A stretch of DNA of 50,275 nt from a virus (Duplodnaviria > Heunggongvirae > Uroviricota > Caudoviricetes), in the IMG/VR virus record IMGVR_UViG_2974540528_000001, positions 97,169 through 147,443 of that record; one strand, given 5' to 3'. A program made the position numbers and the translations under genes. Positions 3,074 through 16,505 of the stretch are shown here, one piece after another; the stretch's first letter is position 1, and every line of letters begins with the position of its first letter. Below the pieces are notes generated by a model. That model was given only the letters and a program-made list of their open reading frames with translations. It did no database searches and had not been told where the DNA came from.

Positions 3074-3358
3074 ATGAAAGCTATCCCGCTGAAGAAGTGC
3101 AAACCTATAACCTACTGCAAATTCTGCAAAGCCATTGGCATCCGCAGGCGATGCACAGTTATGACGAAATACCAACCACCGTGGGGGCTGCGTGACTGGT
3201 ACAAACACTACGCCTGTGATGAACACAAAGACCTGATTGAGGACCCGGACCCACGAGGCATCATGGAAACTGCTGCAAAGAATCCCGCCCCACCACAAAA
3301 AGTTGCAAGGGATGACCACTACACAGAAGCAGATTATCAAACTTGGATGAGGATATAA
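3074..3358 (+). CDS. Cys/His-rich hypothetical protein
   Basis: CKFC...CDEH; operon spacing. Confidence 0.7.
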   Translation: MKAIPLKKCKPITYCKFCKAIGIRRRCTVMTKYQPPWGLRDWYKHYACDEHKDLIEDPDPRGIMETAAKNPAPPQKVARDDHYTEADYQTWMRI

Positions 3359-5023: not shown

Positions 5024-5052
5024 TTGCATCACCCGGAGGGCCATGCTATAGT
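5024..5052 (+). promoter_or_regulatory. sigma70 promoter with extended -10 and no downstream gene
   Basis: TTGCAT-17-TATAGT with TGn. Confidence 0.65.
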
Positions 5053-5390
5053 CATTATACGCCACATCTCCTGAAGCGGGAGGATACAATCATCACCCCT
5101 GCGTGAAAGGTTGCACATCCAATTAACACACAACCTTAAGGGACTCCCCGATATGTCGATAAAACACCATTTCATAAACACATTGCCGTAACGTGTCGAT
5201 GCCATAAACATATCGCGTAAACAGGCCCCTGTTTTCTCCACATAACCACCCCCGCCCCGTGGGGAAATCAAAACATGCCCCTGCCGAAAATATCACTTGC
5301 CGAAAAATATCGTGTTCGCACTGTCTGAGGTGTTTTGGAGCATTCTCACCATCTGAGGTGCTAGACGGACAGCTCCGGGCGTCAATTATT

Positions 5391-5405
5391 TTTACGGATC
5401 TTTAC
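5391..5405 (-). promoter_or_regulatory. CpxR-consensus box
   Basis: GTAAA-GATCC-GTAAA on minus strand, 5 nt upstream of TTGACG. Confidence 0.55.
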
Positions 5406-5762
5406 AAAATATCATGGGCAAGGTCGATCCGGTCCCCGGTCCCTCGGGGCCTCTTCAGGCATGATAGTTACTTGCCGAAACTAATAATTATCAAATGTTA
5501 CAGATAGCAAGCATATGGTTTACCAGCTTAGAGCACGATTTGTCATTGACAAGCTTATATTTATATGAATTACACCATTTAACATAAAACACGTTATACG
5601 CACTGGCTAACAACACATAGCAAGCTAATAATGCCTCAATGTTACCAGTGTGACACATAGGCCAGCCTCTTCAGGTCATTACATGGTGTGACTGTTACTG
5701 TGGTGATAGTTTCATGTGTGATTATTCATGTTTCAGGGTTGTTTTGTGAATGAGATGACGAA

Positions 5763-5925
5763 TGAGAATCATTATTATTTCGATTTCGAATTCAATTTCG
5801 AAATGAGAATCATTCCGCAAATATAAATATTTTGTAAATTTATAAATAAAAGCTTGACAAGGAGAGAGAATCGTGTTTAACACACAGCTCTACTTTGAGC
5901 ATTTCCCCAATGATAATCATTCCCA
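5763..5925. promoter_or_regulatory. Three Fur-box-like sites
   Basis: TGAGAATCATTATTA 5763, TGAGAATCATTCCGC 5804, TGATAATCATTCCCA 5911 versus the 7-1-7 consensus TGATAAT-N-ATTATCA. Confidence 0.6.
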
Positions 5926-6008
5926 TCAACCCCGTTACGGACCGGATACCCGGCAATGCTAAAGCATTGAAATAGTTACAATAAGTAACTATTTTCTTTA
6001 TTGCTACG

Positions 6009-6021
6009 CAAGGGATTGATA
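6009..6021 (-). promoter_or_regulatory. IHF-consensus site
   Basis: TATCAATCCCTTG matches WATCAANNNNTTR, with an upstream AT tract. Confidence 0.4.
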
Positions 6022-6184
6022 GATATTTTCGATAATAAAAACACTTGACAGTTTACACTTTTTCCATGCTCAAAATCAGGCCTTTCCATAGGCCATAGGC
6101 CCACATTAGCAAGTGATTTATTGCTATTTGTCAACCATTAAATTTCATTTAATCACATAATAATAACGGGGTGTTACCATCACC

Positions 6185-6390
6185 AGCGACACAATAACAC
6201 GAGGGCGATCAACGATAGTTGATCGGTGTTATCGTGGCGATGTGATAAAGTTCCATTGCTAATCATTACAGATGTAATGATAATACACTGTAATAATTTC
6301 GTCCTTGATCGTAGCGTCTACGAGCCACGATAACGCGAACGAGAATGCGATTTGTTCGCATTTGAGTTACCCTCGTGTTATTGTGTCGCT
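6185..6390. other. Multi-branched structured element (ncRNA or DNA cruciform)
   Basis: Perfect 21-bp outer inverted repeat enclosing an 11-bp stem and four hairpins. Confidence 0.8.
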
Positions 6391-6489
6391 CGCTACGCTC
6401 GCGCCACTCCCCACGATTACGCGAACGATTTTTATTTGACAAGATTTTATTTTTATGCTCAATAAAACCAGTTCACACAATAGGTTAGA

Positions 6490-6521
6490 TGATAAAAGTT
6501 ATCATTTGAGAGTGATTCCCA
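6490..6521. promoter_or_regulatory. Two adjacent Fur-box-like sites
   Basis: TGATAAAAGTTATCA and TGAGAGTGATTCCCA. Confidence 0.5.
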
Positions 6522-6633
6522 CACTATGCATACATAATGCTTAAAAATGCATGTTTTATTCAGTTAATAACATGCGTTATTAATTGTTGGGGTTGTTAGG
6601 TAGGGCCATACCCTTTTAAGCGCAATATGCGCC

Positions 6634-6697
6634 ATTCTGAGAGGCTTTATCTCTTACCCTGGCTAGTGGGTTACCGCCTGGAGATCTCGATTATGCA
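6634..6697. repeat. GAGATCTC module, copy A (partial)
   Basis: ATTCT..AG..ACCCTGG..AGTG..GAGATCTCG aligns with copies at 8447 and 11805. Confidence 0.65.
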
Positions 6698-6750
6698 GGT
6701 TTTAGTCACCTATCACTTTTTGATTATTGATTGATAAAACCTAACATATA

Positions 6751-6778
6751 AAAACACAAAAGCCGGGAGTTGCCCGGC
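6751..6778 (-). terminator. Rho-independent terminator ending the minus-strand early block
   Basis: GCCGGG/CCCGGC stem followed by a T-rich tract on the minus strand. Confidence 0.75.
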
Positions 6779-6803
6779 ATTATTTTTGGGGAGTAGTGGA
6801 GCC

Positions 6804-7067
6804 TTACAGCGCGATAGCCAGCAGGCCAGCGATCAAGAAAGGGAGATCATAACGGTCTAAACGATTAAAGCGATTAAGTTTAATCAGAGTGTAAAACGTC
6901 AATTGTAAAACGTCGATCATGGTGTTAAACCCTTGCGCCATTGTTTCCGTCGTTACCAGGCAAGCCAGCCAGTTAAAACACGTATTAGACACTAAAGCAA
7001 TAAGGCAAGCCAGCAGGGTAGCGCGTAAAAGGCTTGTTTTGCTTACAGTGTAAATCATGTTTGTCAT
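6804..7067 (-). CDS. Membrane protein
   Basis: GAG RBS; hydrophobic segments. Confidence 0.7.
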   Translation of the reverse strand: MTNMIYTVSKTSLLRATLLACLIALVSNTCFNWLACLVTTETMAQGFNTMIDVLQLTFYTLIKLNRFNRLDRYDLPFLIAGLLAIAL

Positions 7068-7098
7068 TTGGTGTTACTCGTTTAATGAGGGAGGTAAA

Positions 7099-7135
7099 AG
7101 AATAACACACGAAAAAGGGCGCTGCAATAGCGCCC
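7099..7135 (-). promoter_or_regulatory. Overlapping terminator and sigma70 promoter
   Basis: GGGCGCT/AGCGCCC stem plus T5; TTGCAG-17-TATTCT with the -35 in the hairpin loop. Confidence 0.7.
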
Positions 7136-7141
7136 CGATGT

Positions 7142-7312
7142 TTAAGCTAATTCAATCTCAAATAAAACGCCCATATAGCGATCATCACCTGAAAGCGTAG
7201 TAACAATTTTCATACATTCTTCAAAGGTCCAAGCCATTGTAGACCCCTGGCGAACATAAGACACATAACCGGTTTTTGAAGTGCTTTTGATATTGTAGCG
7301 GATATTTGACAT
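7142..7312 (-). CDS. Hypothetical protein (56 aa)
   Basis: AGGTAAA RBS ahead of ATG 7312. Confidence 0.7.
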   Translation of the reverse strand: MSNIRYNIKSTSKTGYVSYVRQGSTMAWTFEECMKIVTTLSGDDRYMGVLFEIELA

Positions 7313-7362
7313 TTTATTTACCTTCGGTTTTGCGGGTTGGTTATCTTCCCGCTCTGAAATAA

Positions 7363-7402
7363 ATAATAGTCGAAAACATCTGGCGAGGCAAGCGTTTTGC
7401 CT
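7363..7402 (-). promoter_or_regulatory. sigma70 promoter with inverted repeat over the -35
   Basis: TTGCCT-17-TATTAT; AGGCAA-5-TTGCCT. Confidence 0.65.
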
Positions 7403-7415
7403 TTTCTTTACAACC

Positions 7416-7628
7416 TCATTCACTGATTAGTTTAAATTCAGCCTCAGGGTGATAAAGGTCGGCCATATAGCGCTTTTTGTAATAGAAAGATACTTCCACA
7501 ATGTGGGGCGCTTCGATTTCTATTTGTGTGATAGTCACTAAACCAGGTTTAAAGCCTGGTGCAATGTCCGGTAACTCAATAACCATTCCGCCTTTTAATT
7601 CCTTCGCTTTTACAGTTCTCATGATCAT
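7416..7628 (-). CDS. Hypothetical protein
   Basis: Coupled to the upstream gene; AAAGGT RBS. Confidence 0.7.
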   Translation of the reverse strand: MIMRTVKAKELKGGMVIELPDIAPGFKPGLVTITQIEIEAPHIVEVSFYYKKRYMADLYHPEAEFKLISE

Positions 7629-7858
7629 TAACCTTTTTTGCGTTTAATTACTTTTATTACTTTAAGGCCCTTTTGTTCTAAAAACTCCGGGCGGCGCAAT
7701 TGTGCGGCGCTGCTACGGCTTTTCACCTTGTTAGACAACACACCATAATAGCGCCCGTCCTCATACTGCCCGATGAAATAAAAATCATTTACGCCGTATT
7801 CCTCATCTCCTGCCTTCTGGATGATTTCGGCTAATTTGTCAACACTAATATTAATCAT
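7628..7858 (-). CDS. Hypothetical protein
   Basis: AGGTAAA RBS and upstream hairpin. Confidence 0.75.
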   Translation of the reverse strand: MINISVDKLAEIIQKAGDEEYGVNDFYFIGQYEDGRYYGVLSNKVKSRSSAAQLRRPEFLEQKGLKVIKVIKRKKG

Positions 7859-7906
7859 AATTGCTTTACCTCAAAGGATAGCGGGGCGGCTAGCGCCCCG
7901 GATTGG

Positions 7907-8236
7907 TTATTTGTTAAGCTCTTTATATTCAGCAATCCAGCGGGTAAAAATCTTATGTTGCTTTTCTGCCGCCGCTTTTGTTCTATGTGAGATAGCGGTG
8001 ATATACCAACAATCCGCAAGGCACCAACCGGAAGAATGAAAAATCCAAGGATAATTTGAATCCGCCGCTTTAAGTTTCACGATCTTCTCTTCTGGTTCAC
8101 TATGTGTGAAGGCTTCGATCTCGTTTGCCGTGTACTGGCGATCTTGCCGCTTGATACGGTTTCCGAAATGATCAAAAGTGTAATTGTGTGATTCCAGGTG
8201 ATTATCCAGCATCTTAAAGAATTCTGATTTAGTCAT
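7907..8236 (-). CDS. Hypothetical protein
   Basis: AGGTAAA RBS; own promoter. Confidence 0.8.
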   Translation of the reverse strand: MTKSEFFKMLDNHLESHNYTFDHFGNRIKRQDRQYTANEIEAFTHSEPEEKIVKLKAADSNYPWIFHSSGWCLADCWYITAISHRTKAAAEKQHKIFTRWIAEYKELNK

Positions 8237-8285
8237 TTTCGTTTACCTCGTTAAGTTGTTTTCGTTTGTTTGCCCTACGAGATAA

Positions 8286-8335
8286 ATAATAATATAAGCG
8301 GGGATCGCTGTCAATAGCTCTTTACGTATCTTTAC
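8286..8335 (-). promoter_or_regulatory. sigma70 promoter with CpxR-consensus box
   Basis: TTGACA-17-TATTAT (8314-8286); GTAAA-GATAC-GTAAA at 8321-8335, 6 nt upstream of the -35. Confidence 0.75.
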
Positions 8336-8446
8336 AAAAGGCCTGTTTATTCACTTTTTGCATCTTTATGCAGCGCTATGCAATTGATTTCATGGTGAAA
8401 TTACTTTTTAGCCGTTTTTACGTGTCAAGCTATTTTTATATAGCCT

Positions 8447-8572
8447 TAAAACGTCCTGAATCGCGTTCTAAGCGGTTTTTCGTCCAGGCCGTACCCTAGC
8501 CCGTTTTCGCGGAGATCTCGCCATATTCACTATTTTGCATAAGATTTTAGGCGTTGTTGAGAGTAATTCTCA
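8447..8572. repeat. GAGATCTC module, copy B, with Fur-like box
   Basis: TAAAACG..TTCTAAGCG..ACCCT..GAGATCTCGC..ATTCAC..TTTTGCATAA; TGAGAGTAATTCTCA at 8558-8572. Confidence 0.75.
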
Positions 8573-8636
8573 TTACCAGAATAGCGGGCACCTCCGGTGA
8601 CTTTCCTCCGGTGTCCATCGTTGCCGCTTCAAAAAC

Positions 8637-8666
8637 AGAATAACAAAAACCAGGACCGAAAACAAG
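8637..8666 (-). promoter_or_regulatory. Possible sigma70 promoter
   Basis: TTGTTT-18-TATTCT with TG extension. Confidence 0.45.
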
Positions 8667-8692
8667 CCCTGGAATTGTAAAGATTTTTCCTA

Positions 8693-9160
8693 TCATGCTG
8701 GGCCGGATCTCTTCGCCTTTGCAATGTCGGAATATAATTTTCTAAAGTATGCCGGGCCTCGCTCGTTTACCCTCACATATTCATCACGCGCCGCCACCTG
8801 GAGATCGTCGGGTAATAATCCATGATAACCACTGTTAACAATAGCGATCCGTTTTTTGTTGCAATCATAGTAGACACATGATCCATCGGCTAGATAAATT
8901 GTGCAGTTTTGCCGGATGTAGGGTATCAAATAAGCCTCGCCCTGGTGCCGGATTTTGTAAAGCGCCATTTGTCCATTGTAGATCCGGCGGACGTGATAAG
9001 GGTCATTAATTGCCCGGTGAATGTTTTCCTTCCAGGCCTGGCGAGCGTTGCCAACATTACGGATCAGTGCTTCCACCTCGGGGATCACAACGTTAGCGCG
9101 GGCGGCGGCTTTTGCCTGGTCTGATAATTCATCGTAATAAAACATTCGTACACTAATCAT
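8693..9160 (-). CDS. Hypothetical protein
   Basis: AGGA RBS; N-terminal YDELSDQAKAAA segment. Confidence 0.8.
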   Translation of the reverse strand: MISVRMFYYDELSDQAKAAARANVVIPEVEALIRNVGNARQAWKENIHRAINDPYHVRRIYNGQMALYKIRHQGEAYLIPYIRQNCTIYLADGSCVYYDCNKKRIAIVNSGYHGLLPDDLQVAARDEYVRVNERGPAYFRKLYSDIAKAKRSGPA

Positions 9161-9191
9161 TTTTGATTCCTATAAACGGAAAATGTGGGAG

Positions 9192-9280
9192 GTCGGCGGG
9201 GCGAAGGTGCTGACTTCGAACCCACTCGCCAGACATGAGGACCAGGACACGGGAACCCCGCCAGCGGTATCGATTCCCGT
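9192..9280. other. GC-rich structured intergenic element
   Basis: Stems 9249-55/9274-80, 9195-9201/9256-62 and CGAAG/CTTCG. Confidence 0.5.
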
Positions 9281-9301
9281 TTAAAACGTTGACGTAAATG
9301 A

Positions 9302-9529
9302 TCATGCGCCGTAAAGGCCATCACCATCAAAATCATCCTGAAAAAATGACAGATATTCGAAAAACTCGAATTCCATCGCTACCGTATGTTTTACCAGATC
9401 GGTGTTTGCATATTCAGCGGGTGATAACCGGATCGGCGCGTCACTATATAGGTCAGTAAGTTCGATGTATTCACCGACTTTTTGAGCGGTCACCGTGTTT
9501 TTCTTGTTGTTAAAAATTACTGTTTTCAT
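9302..9529 (-). CDS. Hypothetical protein
   Basis: Hairpin plus AGGTAAA RBS cassette. Confidence 0.8.
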   Translation of the reverse strand: MKTVIFNNKKNTVTAQKVGEYIELTDLYSDAPIRLSPAEYANTDLVKHTVAMEFEFFEYLSFFQDDFDGDGLYGA

Positions 9530-9548
9530 GGTTTACCTTCCAGGTTAT

Positions 9549-9567
9549 GCCGGGGACGTTCCCCGGC
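9549..9567. repeat. GCCGGGGA/TCCCCGGC stem-loop
   Basis: Perfect 8-bp stem; family member. Confidence 0.85.
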
Positions 9568-9582
9568 TTGTCGGCGAGTGTA

Positions 9583-9843
9583 TTAGAGCGCTTTTTCGAT
9601 ATCACTTAAAATCTTTTTGGCCAGGTCATAGCCTACATTCAGATCCCGCGCGATATCCTCGGCTAACAGTTTACGGCCTACGTTGCCGAAACTTAGCATT
9701 CTTTTAACTTCCGGTAAACACTTACCCCAATAATTATAACAGGAGTTACCGATATATTTTGAATAAAACGCGTTATCGTTGCGAACTCCACCCAAAACAG
9801 CGACATTAACAGAGATAACGTGTTTAAAATTGTGCTTTTCCAT
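9583..9843 (-). CDS. Hypothetical protein
   Basis: Promoter, hairpin and AGGTAAA cassette. Confidence 0.8.
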   Translation of the reverse strand: MEKHNFKHVISVNVAVLGGVRNDNAFYSKYIGNSCYNYWGKCLPEVKRMLSFGNVGRKLLAEDIARDLNVGYDLAKKILSDIEKAL

Positions 9844-9864
9844 TTTGGTTTACCTTTTCGGCTT

Positions 9865-9923
9865 GCCGGGGAGGTATTCCCCGGCCTCAAAAAGATATTA
9901 ACCGATCCGCGACTGGCTTGCAA
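9865..9923 (-). promoter_or_regulatory. sigma70 promoter plus 5' GCCGGGGA stem-loop
   Basis: TTGCAA-17-TAATAT (9923-9895); stem at 9865-9885. Confidence 0.8.
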
Positions 9924-9940
9924 GCGTTTTTATTTAATAA

Positions 9941-10173
9941 TTACGCCCACGTTTTAGCATAAGAAAACAGGTCAGAGACATAGCCGCGATAGCCGCCGGG
10001 GCGTTTTGCCTTTGCGTTGCGATACCATGCGACAATTACAGATCCGCCGCTTGTCACGCCACCAAAAAACCTTTCATCTCCGCTTCGCCAGCTTCCACCC
10101 ATTGCCCACGCTGTAAAGTTTTAGGATCTACGTTGTCGGCCCAAATGTTAACAGTTTTTTGATATTTAGCCAT
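9941..10173 (-). pseudogene. 77-aa protein split by a -1 frameshift at T_TTT_TTG
   Basis: Frame 0 stops at 10054-10056; the -1 frame continues GVTSGGSVIVAWY to TAA 9941. Confidence 0.6.
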
Positions 10174-10189
10174 CTTTTATTTACCCCAA

Positions 10190-10513
10190 TTAGTTAGCAC
10201 GGAAAACATCGTTAACAATAGCCGTTGTAAACATCCAGACTAGATCCGGGGTAGTTATAGGCAGGCTGTCAGCCTGTTTTATTGTTACTCCGCTTCTTTC
10301 AAGCGTGTAGGCGATAAAATGACGGTTTTCAAGTTTCCCGCTATGGGATTGAATGGATTTTTCAGTGCGGATAAGGACAGTTAAACGGTCCGTTTGTTCG
10401 CTGTCATTCTCATGGCAAAATACTAACATGGTTTTTTCACCCTGGCGATTAAAGTCACAATTGACATTATCGTTAACATTTTCCAGAAAGAAAAATTTGT
10501 TTGCCTTTTCCAT
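10190..10513 (-). CDS. Hypothetical protein
   Basis: AGGTAAA RBS; own promoter. Confidence 0.8.
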   Translation of the reverse strand: MEKANKFFFLENVNDNVNCDFNRQGEKTMLVFCHENDSEQTDRLTVLIRTEKSIQSHSGKLENRHFIAYTLERSGVTIKQADSLPITTPDLVWMFTTAIVNDVFRAN

Positions 10514-10559
10514 ACTATTTTACCTTTTTCGCAGCGGGCCAATATTGCCCGGTCCAAGT

Positions 10560-10588
10560 AATATAACCTAACCGGGCCAGGGGATCAA
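10560..10588 (-). promoter_or_regulatory. sigma70 promoter with GATC in the -35
   Basis: TTGATC-17-TATATT. Confidence 0.65.
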
Positions 10589-10788
10589 TAATTATTTTCG
10601 CTTTCCGGCATCGGTTCGACTTCCGGCGATGGTATGCAGGCCGGATTAATCCAGCGCCCCTGGCGCTGATAGTCAACGGCGACGATCTCGCAAGTCAATT
10701 GATCATCATAGCTTTCTACTACATAATCATCACACTGTTTTAAAGCCAGCGCACTATAAAAGCACATACCCGCGAATACTTCAAACAT
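10585..10788 (-). CDS. Small Cys-containing, possibly exported protein (paralog of next gene)
   Basis: MF..C..S....QCD..V......C pattern. Confidence 0.75.
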   Translation of the reverse strand: MFEVFAGMCFYSALALKQCDDYVVESYDDQLTCEIVAVDYQRQGRWINPACIPSPEVEPMPESENNY

Positions 10789-10798
10789 GATCGTTACC

Positions 10799-11017
10799 TT
10801 ACTTTTTGAGGGTGAGAATAGGGCGCTTATCGCCTTCTTTAACGCCGGGGTCTAACTCATCGCAGATCCCGATCTGCTCGCCTTTGCCCAACGTGTATTC
10901 GTTTTCGTACACGTTGCAAGCCTGTTCCGTGGGGAATGTTTTTTTAACATTCCAATCACATTGTAATGCCATCGAACTAACAGAAATATGACAAGCCAAT
11001 ATAATAAATCCAAACAT
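10799..11017 (-). CDS. Small Cys-containing, possibly exported protein
   Basis: Same Cys spacing as 10585-10788. Confidence 0.7.
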   Translation of the reverse strand: MFGFIILACHISVSSMALQCDWNVKKTFPTEQACNVYENEYTLGKGEQIGICDELDPGVKEGDKRPILTLKK

Positions 11018-11055
11018 GGTAGCCGCCTTAATGGGGCGCAAGGCCCCGCTATTGA

Positions 11056-11340
11056 TTATTTGTTGATCTGGTTTGTCTGATTATAGATCCCATATTGAAC
11101 ACGGGACACGGTAACAGATTGAGGGAGTAAGCAACGAACACGATCCGCGCGGTTGTCATATTTTTTGATATGCGCCGGAGTATTGTTGCGGGTAAACTTC
11201 ACGCGTAAACGTAATTTATTGGGATCGCGATCATCGATTCCGGTTACCACGCCAAAAGCGATTTGACCATAGTTATGATACACCATTTTGCCCAGGAATT
11301 TTGATTCAAGAGCGGCGATTTCAGATTTTACGTTTTGCAT
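11056..11340 (-). CDS. Hypothetical protein
   Basis: AGGTAAA RBS before ATG 11340. Confidence 0.8.
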   Translation of the reverse strand: MQNVKSEIAALESKFLGKMVYHNYGQIAFGVVTGIDDRDPNKLRLRVKFTRNNTPAHIKKYDNRADRVRCLLPQSVTVSRVQYGIYNQTNQINK

Positions 11341-11385
11341 GTTGTTTACCTTTTGGTTATTTGTTTCACTTGTCAATGTGTAGGA

Positions 11386-11415
11386 AGTATAACCCCACAC
11401 ATTAACCAGTGTCAA
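11386..11415 (-). promoter_or_regulatory. sigma70 promoter
   Basis: TTGACA-18-TATACT. Confidence 0.75.
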
Positions 11416-11418
11416 CAA

Positions 11419-11595
11419 TTAAAGACAAAATTTTTCTAGTTCTGACTCACGAAAAAGGAAATTATCTAGGCCCTTTGCCACATTTGAACACTCAAAAATC
11501 CATTTACCATTTGAATCTTTCCAAGCGCGATTAATCCCAACATAACAACAAAATTCAGAACTATAGGCCGTTTTATACATGTTTTGCTTTTCCAT
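11419..11595 (-). CDS. Hypothetical protein (58 aa)
   Basis: AGGTAAA RBS. Confidence 0.75.
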   Translation of the reverse strand: MEKQNMYKTAYSSEFCCYVGINRAWKDSNGKWIFECSNVAKGLDNFLFRESELEKFCL

Positions 11596-11641
11596 AGTGT
11601 TTACCTTTTTCAGTGTGGCGGTGAATTCCGCCACTGATTAA

Positions 11642-11704
11642 AGGATAGCATAACGCCGCCAGGATGCAACAAATATTTTTAAGAATTGTTGAGAACTGTT
11701 CTCA
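11642..11704 (-). promoter_or_regulatory. sigma70 promoter with upstream Fur-like palindrome
   Basis: TTGCAT-16-TATCCT; TGAGAAC-T-GTTCTCA at 11690-11704. Confidence 0.6.
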
Positions 11705-11804
11705 TATGCAGTGATGTGCATAGAAAATCGCTGTTATGCAATTAGTTTCAACCGGTAACTAAATTTGCGACGTTTTGAGCGGGGCGCGGTTATCGGATAC
11801 CATC

Positions 11805-11900
11805 TAAAACGCCCTCAAATCGATTCTAAGCGCTTCAATCTGTAACCCTGGTAAGTGCATTGCTACGCTGAGATCTCGCTAAATTCACTTTTTTGCATAA
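11805..11900. repeat. GAGATCTC module, copy C
   Basis: Aligns with 8447-8542 over ~95 bp. Confidence 0.75.
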
Positions 11901-11923
11901 AAAAACCGGGGATAATTCCCCGG
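11899..11923 (-). terminator. Rho-independent terminator built on the CCGGGGA stem
   Basis: CCGGGGA/TCCCCGG followed by T7 on the minus strand. Confidence 0.75.
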
Positions 11924-11928
11924 ACTGG

Positions 11929-12144
11929 TTATTCACCTGCTACGGCGTATCGCTGCAAATTACGCTTACGATCGGCGATGCGTTTATTTAGCTTCGGATC
12001 ATACTGGTCCGGCGACCATTGAACCGCGATCCGTTCCGGCTTATGCCGTTTATTGTTACGCTCGCGCCGCTCGTTAGTCTCACCAAAAGCAAGGCGATCG
12101 CGCTGGCTTGTCATCTTCTCAAAGTTGCGGCTTTTTGCTGTCAT
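11929..12144 (-). CDS. Basic hypothetical protein
   Basis: 71-aa Arg/Lys-rich ORF; GGGGA RBS. Confidence 0.7.
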   Translation of the reverse strand: MTAKSRNFEKMTSQRDRLAFGETNERRERNNKRHKPERIAVQWSPDQYDPKLNKRIADRKRNLQRYAVAGE

Positions 12145-12481
12145 ATCTTGATCCCCTGTGGTTGTATGTTTCCGCTCGCCATTCCGCGATCTGTTTTTTG
12201 CGATATTCGATCAGCTCTTCGATGTAGTCGAAGGATCCCTCTTTATGTACCAGGACCACGCCTCCCCGGTGTTTAATCTCACAAATCAGGCCGCTACCCT
12301 CCAAATCATTTAACGGCCCGGATCTCCTGGTGTGGTACTCCTCCCCCTGGAAGCGATATTCTATATAGTGGAACATTGTTTTAACCCTGTACCAGTAGTA
12401 AAACCATTTTATAACACGCCAGATCCTGACGTGAAGTTTTGCATAATAACAAAATATGAGTAGAATCAACAATTCTTTCAT
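12119..12481 (-). CDS. Hypothetical protein (alternative start 12376)
   Basis: Continuous ORF with a second RBS-like GGGTTAAAAC before ATG 12376. Confidence 0.65.
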   Translation of the reverse strand: MKELLILLIFCYYAKLHVRIWRVIKWFYYWYRVKTMFHYIEYRFQGEEYHTRRSGPLNDLEGSGLICEIKHRGGVVLVHKEGSFDYIEELIEYRKKQIAEWRAETYNHRGSRYDSKKPQL

Positions 12482-12482
12482 A

Positions 12483-12866
12483 TTACGCGGCGCTGTTTTT
12501 AAATGGCTTATCATGGCCGCCAAAATGTAGGCCGATATAGTGACCGACATCAAAATAATCTGTCATTATATCACTATTGTTATAATTATCTGTATTTAAT
12601 GCCTCGATGATTTCGCCAACAGCCTTTTTGAATTCAGGAGTTTTGCAATATCTTTCATAGTGGTATGTGTTTAAATCCTTGTGCCCGTTTTCCCGTTCCC
12701 AATCTGTTAAATCTAAAACATCATTCAAATTGAACGGCGCGGATCGAACGGTACAACGGATCGTAGAATAGTGAATTACTTTAAACGTAACTTTCCAACC
12801 CTTCGGCAATACATCTTTAACCGCTTCAACAATTTTAGCTTTCTTCTCTTTATTCATGTAGGCCAT
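12483..12866 (-). CDS. LPD29-like (large polyvalent protein-associated) domain protein
   Basis: C-terminal NSDIMTDYFDVGHY motif. Confidence 0.6.
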   Translation of the reverse strand: MAYMNKEKKAKIVEAVKDVLPKGWKVTFKVIHYSTIRCTVRSAPFNLNDVLDLTDWERENGHKDLNTYHYERYCKTPEFKKAVGEIIEALNTDNYNNSDIMTDYFDVGHYIGLHFGGHDKPFKNSAA

Positions 12867-12887
12867 TTTGTTTACCTTTTAGGTTAT

Positions 12888-12942
12888 GCCGGGGACAATT
12901 CCCCGGCTTTAATCAGTATAGCGGTTTAAAGAATCTTTGCAA
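12888..12942 (-). promoter_or_regulatory. sigma70 promoter plus 5' GCCGGGGA stem-loop
   Basis: TTGCAA-16-TATACT; stem at 12888-12907. Confidence 0.7.
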
Positions 12943-13438
12943 CGTCTTTATAAGACCATGCAAAAAGAGAATTTTGTTTACCTGGTGCAACATCCGCCAG
13001 GCGTCCAGCAAATCGGGCGCGGTTATGTGGGAACTCAAAGACAACCACACGACCGGATACCATTTCCACGCGATCGCCGTTTTTCAGGATCTTGATCCGG
13101 TCAATCAATGCTTTCTGCTCTTTTTTGTATTTGGCATGTTTACGGCAAGCGGCACGCCAATTAACGGAAAATTCATCTTTTTGCATGGATCGCTTAAGGA
13201 ATTTTTCAGGACAGTTATAATAACACGGGCCGCAGGTTTCATCCATATCTTTATAAAAGACCATACCATCTTTACGAGAAAGAATTGTTACACGAATGTA
13301 AAGACTTTCATCCCTCGCCCTTGCAAGTTGATAAACTTCATTGCCTACAACAGAAGTTTCGATCACGCGGTTATCAGTCAGATAATTTTCAACAAATTTT
13401 TTGTTATTAAGATTAGAATAAATGCCAGTCCAGCCCAT
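12926..13438 (-). CDS. DUF6927-like protein
   Basis: N-terminal MGW; YKDMDETCGP..CP..WR..C motif. Confidence 0.55.
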   Translation of the reverse strand: MGWTGIYSNLNNKKFVENYLTDNRVIETSVVGNEVYQLARARDESLYIRVTILSRKDGMVFYKDMDETCGPCYYNCPEKFLKRSMQKDEFSVNWRAACRKHAKYKKEQKALIDRIKILKNGDRVEMVSGRVVVFEFPHNRARFAGRLADVAPGKQNSLFAWSYKDVAKIL

Positions 13439-13481
13439 GATATTTTACCTCGTTTAGTGTTTAGTTTGTTGGTGCCTGGTA

Positions 13482-13511
13482 ATTATAGGCCCTTTCCGGG
13501 CCTGGTGTCAA
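13482..13511 (-). promoter_or_regulatory. Consensus sigma70 promoter with palindromic spacer
   Basis: TTGACA-18-TATAAT; AGGCCC/GGGCCT inverted repeat. Confidence 0.85.
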
Positions 13512-13514
13512 ATA

Positions 13515-13784
13515 TTATTTTCTTAAATCTTTCCAGCCAGCGGCGCATATATCGCCAGCTAGATAATATTTATTATCAAGATCTGAGATCTTAAAGGTGA
13601 ATTCATGCCCAAGATAGTTAAATTTTTTAACAAGGACTGAGATCAGGCAATCAGGGCCGTGATGGAAGTGATCCACGTTGTAGGCCTCTTTTGATATGCT
13701 GATACACTCGCCATACTGGGCGACCTGGTGAAAACACTTGTTAAAATCGCGCATAAGCTTTAAAGACCTGAGATTCATTGCCAT
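13515..13784 (-). CDS. Hypothetical protein
   Basis: GGGTAAAA RBS; hairpin and promoter. Confidence 0.8.
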   Translation of the reverse strand: MAMNLRSLKLMRDFNKCFHQVAQYGECISISKEAYNVDHFHHGPDCLISVLVKKFNYLGHEFTFKISDLDNKYYLAGDICAAGWKDLRK

Positions 13785-13804
13785 GATATTTTACCCTTGC
13801 TAGG

Positions 13805-13861
13805 GCCGGGGAGAATTCCCCGGCTGATTTGTATTATCTGTTATCGTGTGGCGGTTGTCAA
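13805..13861 (-). promoter_or_regulatory. sigma70 promoter plus 5' GCCGGGGA stem-loop
   Basis: TTGACA-17-GATAAT; stem at 13805-13824. Confidence 0.8.
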
Positions 13862-14643
13862 ATGATACGTTCGAATTTATCGAATCTTTTTGCGGATCTG
13901 CCGTGAACGTCGATCACGACGTTGGCACGTTTACCATCGCACAGGCCGCAATCTAAACAGCTGATGTTGTGAGTTGTATTAACGCAAGTGATCTCACCTT
14001 CCAAGCGGCGCATGTTGGGAGTTTTCACGCGGAAAGTTTTATAACCCTTACGCCATGCTGTGATCGCTTGTTTCTCCGTATCGGCTGAGATCTGGCAAAT
14101 GGTAGCGATACGATGATCAAAATTCTTATGGTGGATCTGGTGAGTGTACCCCGTGTTACCTTGCGTATGGTTGATCATGTTTTGCCATACCTCAAAAGGA
14201 ACCGCCGCCGGATCACCGTAGGAACCTAAACGAATATGACGACCCGCAAAATGTACCAGATCGCGAGAATCAAGATCTTTATAGTTGCCTTTTTTGTAAG
14301 ACTTCCAGACTGACAGCGGGGCCTGGTGTAACGTCACATAACAAGCGCCGTTTAAGCTGGTACGATGGGGACACATACCGCAAACAGATGAATCAAGTTT
14401 TTTAGCGCTCGCTTCCAGTGGGCTAACATCTTCCCGCATGATCCAGGTCTGGATCATATCGCCGGTTTTATCGTTAGCGGTTGACATTGTAGCAATGACC
14501 ACGATCGGGGCCTTATCCAGAACTGACGGGCCTTTATATAATACATAACCCTTTTTTGCTGTGGATTTTTTACCCGGTACACTATGCACGATCTCGGATT
14601 CTGAGTTGACAACCAGACCATTATTAAGTTTAAACGTAGACAT
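13858..14643 (-). CDS. Cys-rich protein, possible Fe-S or radical-SAM-like enzyme
   Basis: CGMCPH, CYV, RLGSYGDP and C-terminal CLDCGLC. Confidence 0.5.
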   Translation of the reverse strand: MSTFKLNNGLVVNSESEIVHSVPGKKSTAKKGYVLYKGPSVLDKAPIVVIATMSTANDKTGDMIQTWIMREDVSPLEASAKKLDSSVCGMCPHRTSLNGACYVTLHQAPLSVWKSYKKGNYKDLDSRDLVHFAGRHIRLGSYGDPAAVPFEVWQNMINHTQGNTGYTHQIHHKNFDHRIATICQISADTEKQAITAWRKGYKTFRVKTPNMRRLEGEITCVNTTHNISCLDCGLCDGKRANVVIDVHGRSAKRFDKFERII

Positions 14644-14688
14644 TGCTTTTTACCTCGATTTATCGCGGCCATTGCCGCCTGAGAAAAC

Positions 14689-14717
14689 ACTTTATCAAAG
14701 GCGCTAACTGAAAGCAA
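14689..14717 (-). promoter_or_regulatory. sigma70 promoter
   Basis: TTGCTT-17-TAAAGT. Confidence 0.6.
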
Positions 14718-14736
14718 GCGCCCAGGATAAAATATT

Positions 14737-14904
14737 TTATTTGGCCAGGGATAAGGTTTTGCCGTGGTTGATCCCAGGGATAACCCATTGCCCGGCGCCA
14801 TCTTTAACAGGTTGACGTAAACGCGCCGCCGTGGTTACCTTGCTGTTAACATTACGGGCAAAAGCGCGGGCCTGGTCACGGGTAGTAAAAGAAATGTTTT
14901 TCAT
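14737..14904 (-). CDS. 55-aa protein resembling the rIIB N-terminal repeat
   Basis: GAGGA RBS; FTTRDQARAFAR...W. Confidence 0.7.
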   Translation of the reverse strand: MKNISFTTRDQARAFARNVNSKVTTAARLRQPVKDGAGQWVIPGINHGKTLSLAK

Positions 14905-14946
14905 GTTGTATCCTCGTTTGAGTGGTTTTTTGTTTCGCTTGTCAGG

Positions 14947-14983
14947 TCCGGGGATTATAACCCCGGACACTAGCCAGTGTCAA
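14947..14983 (-). promoter_or_regulatory. Consensus sigma70 promoter with the -10 inside a hairpin loop
   Basis: TTGACA-18-TATAAT; TCCGGGG-ATTATAA-CCCCGGA. Confidence 0.85.
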
Positions 14984-14991
14984 TTAAATGT

Positions 14992-15279
14992 TTATTCTTC
15001 GCCAGGTTCACCATAGGCGCTAGAAATAGGCGCGCCACAATGGGCGCATGGAGTATCTGACCCTTCCCAATAGATATCCACTCCAGCAGGCATCCAGGCC
15101 CGGTCGTTTTCGTCTCGCAATCCCTCCAAAATTTGGCGGAAATTTTCACGGGCACAATTTGAACAAATGATCTCACTATCCCGCATGATCAAAATTTTCG
15201 GATACCCACCGAACTCATACGGGTGGCGGATATAATTTTTTACAGTGCCGATCAATTGTTTGTTAGCGGAAATTTTCAT
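14992..15279 (-). CDS. Zn-finger hypothetical protein
   Basis: CSNC...CAHC; AGGTAAA RBS. Confidence 0.8.
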   Translation of the reverse strand: MKISANKQLIGTVKNYIRHPYEFGGYPKILIMRDSEIICSNCARENFRQILEGLRDENDRAWMPAGVDIYWEGSDTPCAHCGAPISSAYGEPGEE

Positions 15280-15326
15280 TCTGTTTTACCTTTTAAGTTG
15301 GGCGGCGAGGCGACCTGATGAGATGA

Positions 15327-15428
15327 ATAGTAAGCGCTTTACTAATTGCCGTCAATCCCCTGGATGAAAATAAATTAAAAATATTTTTGTTCGTGTGGGC
15401 TTGCGCCCCGGCGTGGTTAGTGTACTAT
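15327..15428. promoter_or_regulatory. Divergent sigma70 promoter pair sharing an AT-rich UP tract
   Basis: Minus: TTGACG-17-TACTAT (15355-15327); plus: TTGCGC-16-TACTAT (15401-15428). Confidence 0.75.
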
Positions 15429-15459
15429 ATAAGGACGCCCACAAATAAAGGTAAACAAA

Positions 15460-15645
15460 ATGGAAAACACAAAAGTGATAACGAGTGAAACAATGGTTAC
15501 CCTTTCCACCTGGGAGACGGAAAGCGCAGCGCCCCAGGTTAGGATCGTGCCTTTACCCTTCGCGTTGAAAATGTATAATGCAGGATTTACCAGGGTGAGA
15601 ATTGTTGCGGAAAATGGAGAAGTGATCGCGGACTCCTGGGAGTAA
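15460..15645 (+). CDS. Hypothetical protein
   Basis: AAGGTAAAC RBS; own promoter. Confidence 0.8.
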   Translation: MENTKVITSETMVTLSTWETESAAPQVRIVPLPFALKMYNAGFTRVRIVAENGEVIADSWE

Positions 15646-15659
15646 AAAATATTTTATCG

Positions 15660-15694
15660 CGGGGCTTGCAAACGGCCCCGGCCTGGATTATATT
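15660..15694 (+). promoter_or_regulatory. sigma70 promoter with the -35 in a hairpin loop
   Basis: TTGCAA-17-TATATT; CGGGGC/GCCCCG. Confidence 0.75.
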
Positions 15695-15700
15695 TATCAG

Positions 15701-15795
15701 ACAGAAGAGGAAACGCCACCCCACGGCGTAAAGGCGGGGCTAACGTACCAGGCGCGGGGCCAGGTCGGAAGGTGGATCGCCGGTAGCTCGCCTAA
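15701..15795 (+). ncRNA. Candidate small structured RNA
   Basis: Follows a promoter, has no ORF; stems 15713-17/15725-29 and 15732-42/15784-93. Confidence 0.45.
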
Positions 15796-15804
15796 AATCT
15801 ATTT

Positions 15805-15860
15805 GTAAAGAATTGTAAAGACGCTTGCAACCTGGGGCCGTGTATCCTATATTATACACA
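15805..15860 (+). promoter_or_regulatory. sigma70 promoter with CpxR-consensus box and DnaA box
   Basis: GTAAA-GAATT-GTAAA at 15805-19; TTGCAA-17-TATATT; TTATACACA at 15852-60. Confidence 0.7.
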
Positions 15861-15912
15861 TAGCGGGAACATTGAAACCGGAGTACAAAACACCGGGGGT
15901 GCCTGTCATTCA

Positions 15913-15961
15913 GCAAATGAGAATGATTATCATTCAAATAACTAAATAAGAATGCTTCTCA
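15913..15961. promoter_or_regulatory. Fur-box-like sites
   Basis: TGAGAAT-G-ATTATCA at 15918-32; TAAGAAT-G-CTTCTCA at 15947-61. Confidence 0.65.
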
Positions 15962-16026
15962 TTCAACAAAAAAAAAATTAAATATTGACTTCTGATTTTT
16001 CATGTGAGATACTGAGCGATACCCCT

Positions 16027-16240
16027 AAAAAATTTTTTCGCGTAAGAAAACAAATACGATCTGGAAATTGAGATCTCGATCGAGAACCGGGCCGAAAAAT
16101 TTTTTCTAGAGAAAAAACAATTACGATCTCGATTTTGAAAAACCGATCGAGAACTCGATTGATATAGAGAAAAATTTTTTGATAGTGAGAGCAAATACGT
16201 TTTTGAAAACGAAAAGTCGATCGAGAACCCAGAGTTTTCT
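16027..16240. repeat. Three degenerate ~70-bp tandem repeats with A-tracts and GATC
   Basis: CGATCGAGAAC at 16077, 16144 and 16218; AAAAATTTTTT three times. Confidence 0.75.
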
Positions 16241-16505
16241 ACCTGAAAATTTGAGATATCTTTTTCGCCTATTTGAGATAAATGTCCAATCTTGATGCCA
16301 AGATACCTATAGCAATCATACACTTGTGCATCATTTTTCGACATAGCTTCCACAAAGGTTTGAGATAATCTACTCCCAAAACTCTTTATTTAAAAATTTG
16401 CAGGGAAGATGAAATCCGTTTCAAAAACGATTTTGAAAACCATTTCGAATTTTAAAATATCTTTGGGATATTAAATATCGTACAAATATCCCACAGTTTT
16501 GAATC

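Follow-up and report, generated by a model that had tools for sequence, protein, structure and literature searches.

CpxR sites of the host and early promoters of lytic phages

The direct repeat GTAAA-N5-GTAAA is the consensus site of phosphorylated CpxR (CpxR-P), the response regulator of the Cpx envelope-stress pathway of Escherichia coli. In this study, copies of this repeat (boxes) were examined in a stretch of viral DNA of 50,275 nucleotides (the window; positions 97,169 to 147,443 of IMG/VR record IMGVR_UViG_2974540528_000001) from the 147,443-bp genome of a Mydovirus-like Klebsiella phage of the Vequintavirinae (the window phage), where the boxes appear to belong, as upstream element, to sigma-70 early promoters that form a conserved class. 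Host CpxR sites are located at most about 100 bp from the start of transcription (Price and Raivio 2009, in the form in which PMC8831704 cites it), and CpxR-P footprints in Yersinia cover boxes approximately 55 nt upstream of the cpxR start codon and approximately 80 nt upstream of that of ppiA, the ppiA footprint being on the sense strand (PMC3158067). Reg-Seq, a massively parallel reporter assay, in combination with mass spectrometry has confirmed a CpxR activator site at cpxRp, with an analogous footprint at yqaEp (bioRxiv 10.1101/2025.05.13.653802), and host CpxR cross-regulates mobile-element genes in Klebsiella pneumoniae (PMC10524804). Among 41 curated CpxR sites of E. coli (PMC9600279, Table S1), nine match the consensus perfectly, and A or G occupies position 6. 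The genome of E. coli K-12 contains 21 exact boxes in 4.64 Mb.

The early programme of lytic phages is usually seen as run by constitutive strong promoters. The genome papers on rV5 and Certrevirus report only sigma-70-like promoters and an AAAA element and do not mention the motif (Certrevirus, PMC7344957). Full-text searches returned no paper linking CpxR boxes to phage promoters, in agreement with a preliminary description of the window, which knew of no such case in a lytic phage. The present work adds an extended form of the consensus, figures for its conservation, the fixed gaps of two orientation classes, the promoter core that T5-like phages have in common with rV5-like ones and a comparison of the boxes with those of the host.

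Exact boxes in the window

Three exact boxes were found in the window, and the rest of the genome contained no further copy. The boxes and the promoter elements next to them are as follows:
5391-5405, minus strand: box 1, GTAAAGATCCGTAAA, exact repeat with GATC in the spacer
5358-5385, minus strand: promoter-like stretch of site 1, TTGACG (5385-5380), 16-nt spacer, TAGCAC (5363-5358)
8321-8335, minus strand: box 2, GTAAAGATACGTAAA (then G), exact direct repeat of the CpxR consensus, 6 nt upstream of the -35 hexamer
8272-8314, minus strand: predicted site-2 promoter, TTGACA (8314-8309), 17-nt spacer, TATTAT (8291-8286), start region ATCTCGTAGGGC (8283-8272)
15805-15819, plus strand: box 3, GTAAAGAATTGTAAA (then G), 5 nt upstream of the -35 hexamer
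15825-15853, plus strand: predicted site-3 promoter, TTGCAA, 17-nt spacer, TATATT

The number expected in the window was 0.15, and none of 100 dinucleotide-preserving shuffles gave three. All three boxes are located in non-coding DNA within an early region rich in small genes; at site 1, the overlapping open reading frames had no match among the PHROG families, and the orthologous stretch carries no annotation in KNP2 and PVP-SE1. The coordinates, strands and intergenic placement given in the preliminary description were borne out, as were its distances of 5, 6 and 5 nt to TTGACG, TTGACA and TTGCAA at sites 1, 2 and 3, respectively, and its remark that one spacer, which is that of site 1, contains GATC. 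Its assignment to the CpxR consensus also held, since each box matches at 10 of 10 positions, a level reached by 9 of the 41 curated E. coli sites. The claim that all boxes stand at promoters was upheld for sites 2 and 3, where TATTAT and TATATT follow after a 17-nt spacer, but not for site 1, where TAGCAC, found after 16 nt, is without the essential final T and thus gives no usable -10.

Examination of the three boxes revealed that they all read TTTGTAAAGA, followed by three variable bases and GTAAA, and that the conserved motif is longer than the consensus, being GTAAAG-N4-GTAAAG, i.e. TGTAAAGA twice. With up to two mismatches allowed, six arrangements of box and promoter were present in the genome, compared with 0.27 in Markov-shuffled genomes; one of the six involves a degenerate box at 7396-7411 (minus strand). 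By simple promoter scoring, the site-2 promoter had the top score of the scored set (14.7). Boxes 2 and 3 stop 5-6 nt short of the -35 of their predicted promoters, which places them within about 100 bp of the predicted starts.

Conservation in rV5-like and phi92-like relatives

Klebsiella phages KNP2, KpS8 and KB57 and Proteus phage Mydo are 92-96% identical to the window phage. The arrangement of the boxes proved strongly conserved in relatives, a point on which the preliminary description had made its proposal depend: relatives have 2-5 exact boxes per genome, compared with 0-1 copies of a control pattern. Box 3 is exact in Mydo, KNP2, 4MG, FENT2, GAP31, PVP-SE1, Certrevirus DU_PP_IV, SSBI34, the phi92-like PHB05 and phAPEC8, and an orthologous exact box 2 is present in Mydo, KNP2, 4MG, FENT2 and GAP31, with the spacers ATAC, TTAT and AAGT. 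In Mydovirus, Seunavirus, Certrevirus, phi92-like and phAPEC8-like phages, the GTAAAG half-sites are invariant, in contrast to the four bases of the spacer (ATAC, TTAT, AAGT, AATT, ATTT, AAAT and AACT). A census of the window genome and ten relatives gave 20 distinct forward arrangements. All exact boxes with G at position 6 precede TTGnnn-N16-18-TAnnnT, except box 1 and its copies in Mydo and KNP2, which have TTG and no usable -10. The remaining three exact boxes, whose position 6 is A or C, have no promoter context. In FENT2, a promoter lies behind each of five boxes, four of which have an identical 15-mer.

Alignment of 16 orthologues of site 3 revealed that the distal unit TTTGTAAAGA is present in 14 and the proximal unit in 11 of them. 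Among 10 representative lineages, the distal unit is identical in all, and the pairwise identity is 54% in the linker before the box, 42-46% in the spacer, 68% in the -35 and 72% in the -10. This pattern of an invariant unit in diverging surroundings appears typical of a protein site. In phi92-like and phAPEC8-like phages, an insertion of 9-10 nt between box and -35 widens the gap to 14-17 nt, suggesting that the box was shifted by about one helical turn; a second promoter of phAPEC8 likewise has a 17-nt gap.

The boxes might instead have no function of their own and have been inherited with copied promoter cassettes. The four identical 15-mers of FENT2, which suggest copying within a genome, and site 1, which looks like a decayed copy, would fit this explanation. 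However, the half-sites are invariant while spacers and flanks diverge, the surrounding DNA being only about 50-70% identical, and the spacing is rigid in two orientation classes (see below), so that we consider boxes with no function of their own very improbable.

An IMG/VR scan for the extended motif gave mostly unrelated A/T-rich matches and was uninformative. It was also noticed that a contig of 345,809 bp (IMGVR_UViG_2595698293_000001) contains four matches to TTTGTAAAGA-N3-GTAAA, which could be due to chance in A/T-rich DNA or could mark another phage group with the element.

Boxes and a shared promoter core in T5-like phages

Eight exact boxes were found in T5, where the control pattern is absent; T4 has two (control, two), and a search for an exact box in Felix O1 gave none. 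Three of the eight T5 boxes are located inside the 10.2-kb terminal repeat, that is, in the first-step-transfer DNA that enters the cell first:
T5 (GenBank: NC_005859) 3089-3103, minus strand: box with exact consensus
T5 5080-5094, plus strand: box with exact consensus
T5 7519-7533, plus strand: box with exact consensus; right-end copies of these three boxes are also present

T5.012 has an extended -10 promoter whose -35 position is preceded, at 5 nt, by one of the T5 boxes, with an annotated terminator hairpin in between. A second box, in inverted orientation, is located 10 nt ahead of TTGCGC-17-TATTAT, a promoter for T5.009 that carries no annotation. The latter promoter, which belongs to the pre-early region, and that of site 2 have 20 identical bases in common, comprising the -10 hexamer, two T and ATCTCGTAGGGC:
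window 8272-8291, minus strand, and T5 record about 5028-5047: shared 20-base core, with close variants in phAPEC8 and many T5-like contigs

Scanning IMG/VR for this core revealed 27 distinct contexts, of which 1) 17 are T5-like with an inverted box (both half-sites intact in 16, the first half-site mutated in one), 2) three are rV5-like with a forward box, and 3) seven are without promoter features or box. The gap between inverted box and -35 is exactly 10 nt in all T5-like contexts scored, and the spacer varies. These results suggest one cis element that occurs in two orientation classes, each with rigid spacing, in phages sharing few genes. ATCTCGTAGGGC, the conserved start region, might act as an operator or as a leader signal.

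The promoter class may spread between promoters, as indicated by the identical 15-mers of FENT2 and by the 20-base core common to T5 and site 2. T4-type early promoter cassettes are similar in being recurring mobile promoter modules, for which we know of no activator-type direct repeat; the promoter-early stem-loops of T4-type phages, short modules between small early genes treated by Arbiol et al. in 2010, reportedly spread within and between genomes. It is conceivable, and we propose it with considerable reserve, that a mobile immediate-early promoter cassette is common to the unrelated virulent rV5/phi92-like myoviruses and T5-like siphoviruses and is hard-wired, via perfect and position-locked CpxR sites, to the envelope-stress response of the host.

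Search for a phage-encoded reader

The preliminary description had offered, as an alternative to CpxR, an activator encoded by the phage itself with the same repeat specificity. No match to the OmpR-type domain PF00486 (Trans_reg_C) was found in six frames of the whole genome, whereas control genomes matched, and homologues of T5 A1 and A2 were sought in the window phage genome with none detected. This alternative is weakened by the lack of an OmpR-type domain and by the occurrence of the box in the first-step-transfer region of T5, whose transcription precedes the synthesis of any phage protein. The pre-early (first-step) genes of T5 are transcribed by unmodified host polymerase (PMC7472727); since, in addition, neither an OmpR-type domain nor a homologue of A1 or A2 was detected in the window phage, a reader supplied by the host is the simpler explanation.

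In broader form, some other sequence-specific protein, either a phage regulator or a host factor preferring TGTAAAGA repeats, could read the box, its likeness to a CpxR site being coincidental. The 8-10 conserved bases per unit exceed the requirement of CpxR, and the shared start region ATCTCGTAGGGC is found at a typical operator position. Such a phage regulator might boost the promoter class or later shut it off, and the mechanism by which T5 pre-early transcription is shut off is given as not known in the T5 record note for A1 and in a passage of PMC7472727. However, the motif is unchanged over two myovirus subfamilies and T5-like siphoviruses with few common genes, whereas phage regulators and their operators usually drift jointly. 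Moreover, at time zero, a factor made only after infection could play no part at the first-step promoters of T5, and the domain and homologue searches above also count against a phage regulator in the window phage. We therefore regard another protein of this kind as an unlikely candidate.

Two further groups of candidates were rejected. A middle promoter of the T4 MotA type, in which a box centred near -30 replaces the -35, was ruled out, since the phage promoters retain the TTG of the -35, with the box further upstream. Boxes of TyrR, PhoP, ArcA, KdpE, Fis, IHF and MarA type were set aside, as their symmetry or spacing does not fit; the TyrR half-site, TGTAAA, is arranged as a palindrome, and KdpE sites have 11-bp phasing.

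Comparison with host CpxR sites and proposed mechanism

The CpxR-P-activated promoters of the host (cpxRA/cpxP, ppiA, yccA and yqaE) resemble the phage promoters in having the same perfect repeat, A or G at position 6 and the sense-strand arrangement. The box reads GTAAA on the sense strand, like the forward phage boxes, at cpxRA, ppiA, yccA, yqaE and alx, and it is inverted at cpxP, like the T5-like class. The CpxR sites of ompC and yccA differ from phage boxes solely in the spacer. The gap to the likely -35, as predicted by simple promoter scoring, is 4 nt at cpxRA, 4 nt at ppiA, 5 nt at yccA, 17 nt at alx and 20 nt at psd; the predicted 4-5 nt of cpxRA, ppiA and yccA compare with 5-6 nt in the window phage, and the 17 nt of alx with the gap in phAPEC8. 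The two sets also differ. Host CpxR promoters need the activator, their -35 hexamers being poor, whereas the core promoters of sites 2 and 3 are good, and the phage unit, a putative CpxR site, is conserved over 8-10 bases, unlike host CpxR sites. The blaKPC and tra promoters of IncFII plasmids in K. pneumoniae (PMC10524804) are likewise promoters of a mobile element plugged into the host Cpx regulator; the plasmid sites, however, are non-canonical and footprinted, whereas the phage boxes, as putative CpxR sites, are canonical and belong to lytic phages.

On these grounds, our preferred reading, held tentatively, is that the boxes are position-locked activator sites read by host CpxR-P. In this class of promoters, GTAAAG-N4-GTAAAG is followed by a fixed gap, TTGnnn, 16-18 nt and TAnnnT, often with ATCTCGTAGGGC. 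A response regulator of the OmpR family, supplied by the host and bound as a tandem dimer, would most likely occupy the two 10-bp-phased half-sites, and phosphorylated CpxR would be the best candidate. Placed at about -41 to -56 and adjoining RNA polymerase, CpxR-P would raise initiation when the Cpx pathway is active, and this would affect the site-2 operon of small early genes, the site-3 non-coding transcript and perhaps the weaker promoter at 7391-7363. Observed are the motif, where it lies, how it is conserved and how it resembles CpxR sites of the host, whereas we infer the identity of the binder and activation through its binding. The preliminary description went further in proposing that adsorption of the phage itself may trigger the envelope-stress response to which the early promoters would be wired.

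OmpR itself, or another close paralogue of its family, might be the host reader. The ompF and ompC promoters have 10-bp-phased TTTAC-type half-sites (F1-F3 and C1-C3) that abut the -35, as the phage box does, and both that sequence type and that phasing are typical of OmpR sites. CpxR shares F1, and the curated CpxR site ompF1 (GTAACCAAAAGTAAA) lies inside the ompF promoter, so that the targets of both regulators overlap. The half-sites at ompF and ompC are degenerate, whereas those of the phages are invariant, and they are opposite in orientation to the forward phage class, with TTTAC on the sense strand. Since, furthermore, the exact consensus belongs to CpxR, and the forward orientation equals that of the sense strand at ppiA, yccA and cpxRA, we judge OmpR or a paralogue to be a quite improbable reader.

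Several observations weigh against reading by CpxR-P. 1) Sites 2 and 3, with their good core promoters, should fire without an activator. 2) The conserved unit (T)GTAAAGA exceeds what the CpxR consensus needs, and the curated E. coli sites have no such flanks; because the TGTAAAGA repeat is more specific than that consensus requires, there is room for another reader. 3) The host -35 positions in the spacing comparison are predictions, not mapped starts. 4) The rV5-like and T5-like samples are not fully independent, because of the shared 20-nt promoter core. 5) At site 3, the proximal half-site is swapped for plain A-tracts in three lineages (ChuuTotoro, pEp_SNUABM_01 and 05F01), and neither unit is present in rV5, which has A-tracts only and no box, or in one Vibrio phage. 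6) Sister promoters of phAPEC8 and of the window phage have A/T-rich upstream tracts in place of the box. 7) The C-terminal domain of the RNA polymerase alpha subunit (alpha-CTD) binds UP elements at about -42/-52, where the A-triplets of the box fall. Because A-tracts or A/T-rich tracts replace the box in relatives and at sister promoters, a generic UP-like function may be enough.

Points 5) to 7) lead to the explanation that the box is a specialised UP element, whose A-triplets, 10 bp apart at about -42/-52, would be touched by alpha-CTD with no extra factor. The position of the box equals the UP window, with the proximal AAA on the proximal UP subsite when aligned to the published consensus. 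UP elements and A/T-rich tracts also seem interchangeable with the box at orthologous promoters: at 13482-13511 (minus strand), the window phage has an A/T-rich upstream tract and the consensus core TTGACA-18-TATAAT, compared with a GTAAAG box and the weaker core TTGCAA-17-CATAAT in FENT2. This exchange fits an UP element, and it suggests in any case that the box is a positive upstream element. The promoters rrnB P1 and those of Certrevirus, the latter described with an AAAA element upstream of the -35 (AAAA-N3-4-TGTTGAC; PMC7344957), have phased A-tracts in the same window of -40 to -60. However, the phage boxes differ from UP elements in their strict direct repeat and conserved G and T positions: G1, T2 and G6 are invariant in both half-sites, in all lineages and in both orientations, whereas recognition of A-tracts through the minor groove needs none of them. 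The distal half is a poor match, with 7 of 15 specified positions (site 3, counted by hand against the consensus), and the ordinary strong promoters of the window phage are without the motif. An UP element alone thus seems to us rather improbable.

Should CpxR-P be the reader, early expression in these phages would depend on the envelope state of the host, as set by antibiotics, surface attachment, pH, copper or other phages. Under the bolder proposal of a shared hard-wired cassette, the phage would sense envelope damage, superinfection or the surface state of the host as its DNA enters. Dependence on the envelope state would be relevant to phage therapy with the Klebsiella, E. coli and Salmonella phages of the group, would bear on the long-open question of how T5 pre-early genes are controlled, and would make cpxR and cpxA alleles a simple handle on early-gene control in phages without genetics. 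If the reader is not CpxR, the element still defines a promoter class common to two phage families, with its factor to be found.

Genes behind box 2

The first gene behind box 2, which the predicted site-2 promoter would drive, is as follows:
7907-8236, minus strand: gene for a soluble protein of 109 amino acids, phrog_13296, function unknown

Small early genes continue past this gene down to approximately 6804, and Pfam, PHROGs and the protein atlas assigned no function to the genes behind box 2. It was also noticed that a non-coding module is present in two copies, at 8377-8542 and 11735-11900 (both minus strand), with 62% identity over 167 nt; both contain GAGATCTC and a promoter-like TTGACA.

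Conserved non-coding region around box 3

No open reading frame was found downstream of the site-3 promoter on its strand. This promoter aims into a non-coding block and toward the 3' end of a real leftward gene (16000-16353). The features around box 3 are:
15666-15694, plus strand: conserved promoter upstream of box 3, TTGCAA (15666-15671) and TATATT (15689-15694)
15698-15795, plus strand: conserved candidate for a structured RNA of approximately 95 nt, ending just before box 3
15856-15965, plus strand: conserved untranslated block behind box 3, with a conserved 5' part (15856-15913) and two palindromes
15921-15935 (feature span 15916-15935), plus strand: palindrome 1, GAATGATTATCATTC, resembling a Fur-box core
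15950-15964, plus strand: palindrome 2, conserved

The palindrome region is 85% identical over ten lineages and is retained even in rV5, and a paralogous copy of the control block with its palindromes is located at 8558-8628 (minus strand). The palindromes might serve as sites for host Fur or as operators for a phage protein. Under the proposal of a hard-wired cassette, the conserved non-coding control region, with its neighbouring Fur-like boxes, would be a sensor of host physiology.

A consensus fold was sought for the block at 15856-15965 and none was found. In the RNA candidate at 15698-15795, a CGCC/GGCG hairpin is invariant, a second one shows covariation, with GC replaced by AU in 6 of 14 sequences, and a pseudoknot is likely between the loop CCCC and a downstream GGGG, which are CCAA and TTGG in Erwinia phage pEp_SNUABM_01. 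Rfam gave no match to the non-coding blocks at gathering scores or at E up to 5, ARAGORN gave no tRNA, folding of the two blocks as single sequences gave nothing remarkable (z-scores +0.5 and -2.0), and a search for the conserved RNA core returned seven contigs only. Box 3 as part of a terminator of the upstream RNA was ruled out, since no G+C hairpin with a U-run precedes it.

Site 1 and degenerate copies

Box 1 is exact in Mydo and KNP2, and the proximal half-site is deleted in the PVP-SE1 orthologue. Site 1 is located in a long gene-free stretch with flanks that, by eye, are like a decayed site-3 module, and is probably a decayed copy. The fourth box of the genome is degenerate:
7396-7411, minus strand: GTAAA-N6-GCAAA, 4 nt upstream of TTGCCT-17-TATTAT (7391-7363), preceding a gene for 56 amino acids

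Another decayed relative, GTAAT-N6-ATAAA, was noticed at approximately 9918-9940 (minus strand), 5 nt before TTGCAA-17-TAATAT. In addition, the stretch at 5358-5380 (minus strand) around GTCCGTCTAGCAC, where the -10 of site 1 would be expected, is nearly identical in PVP-SE1 despite different flanks, and it may be a separate functional element.

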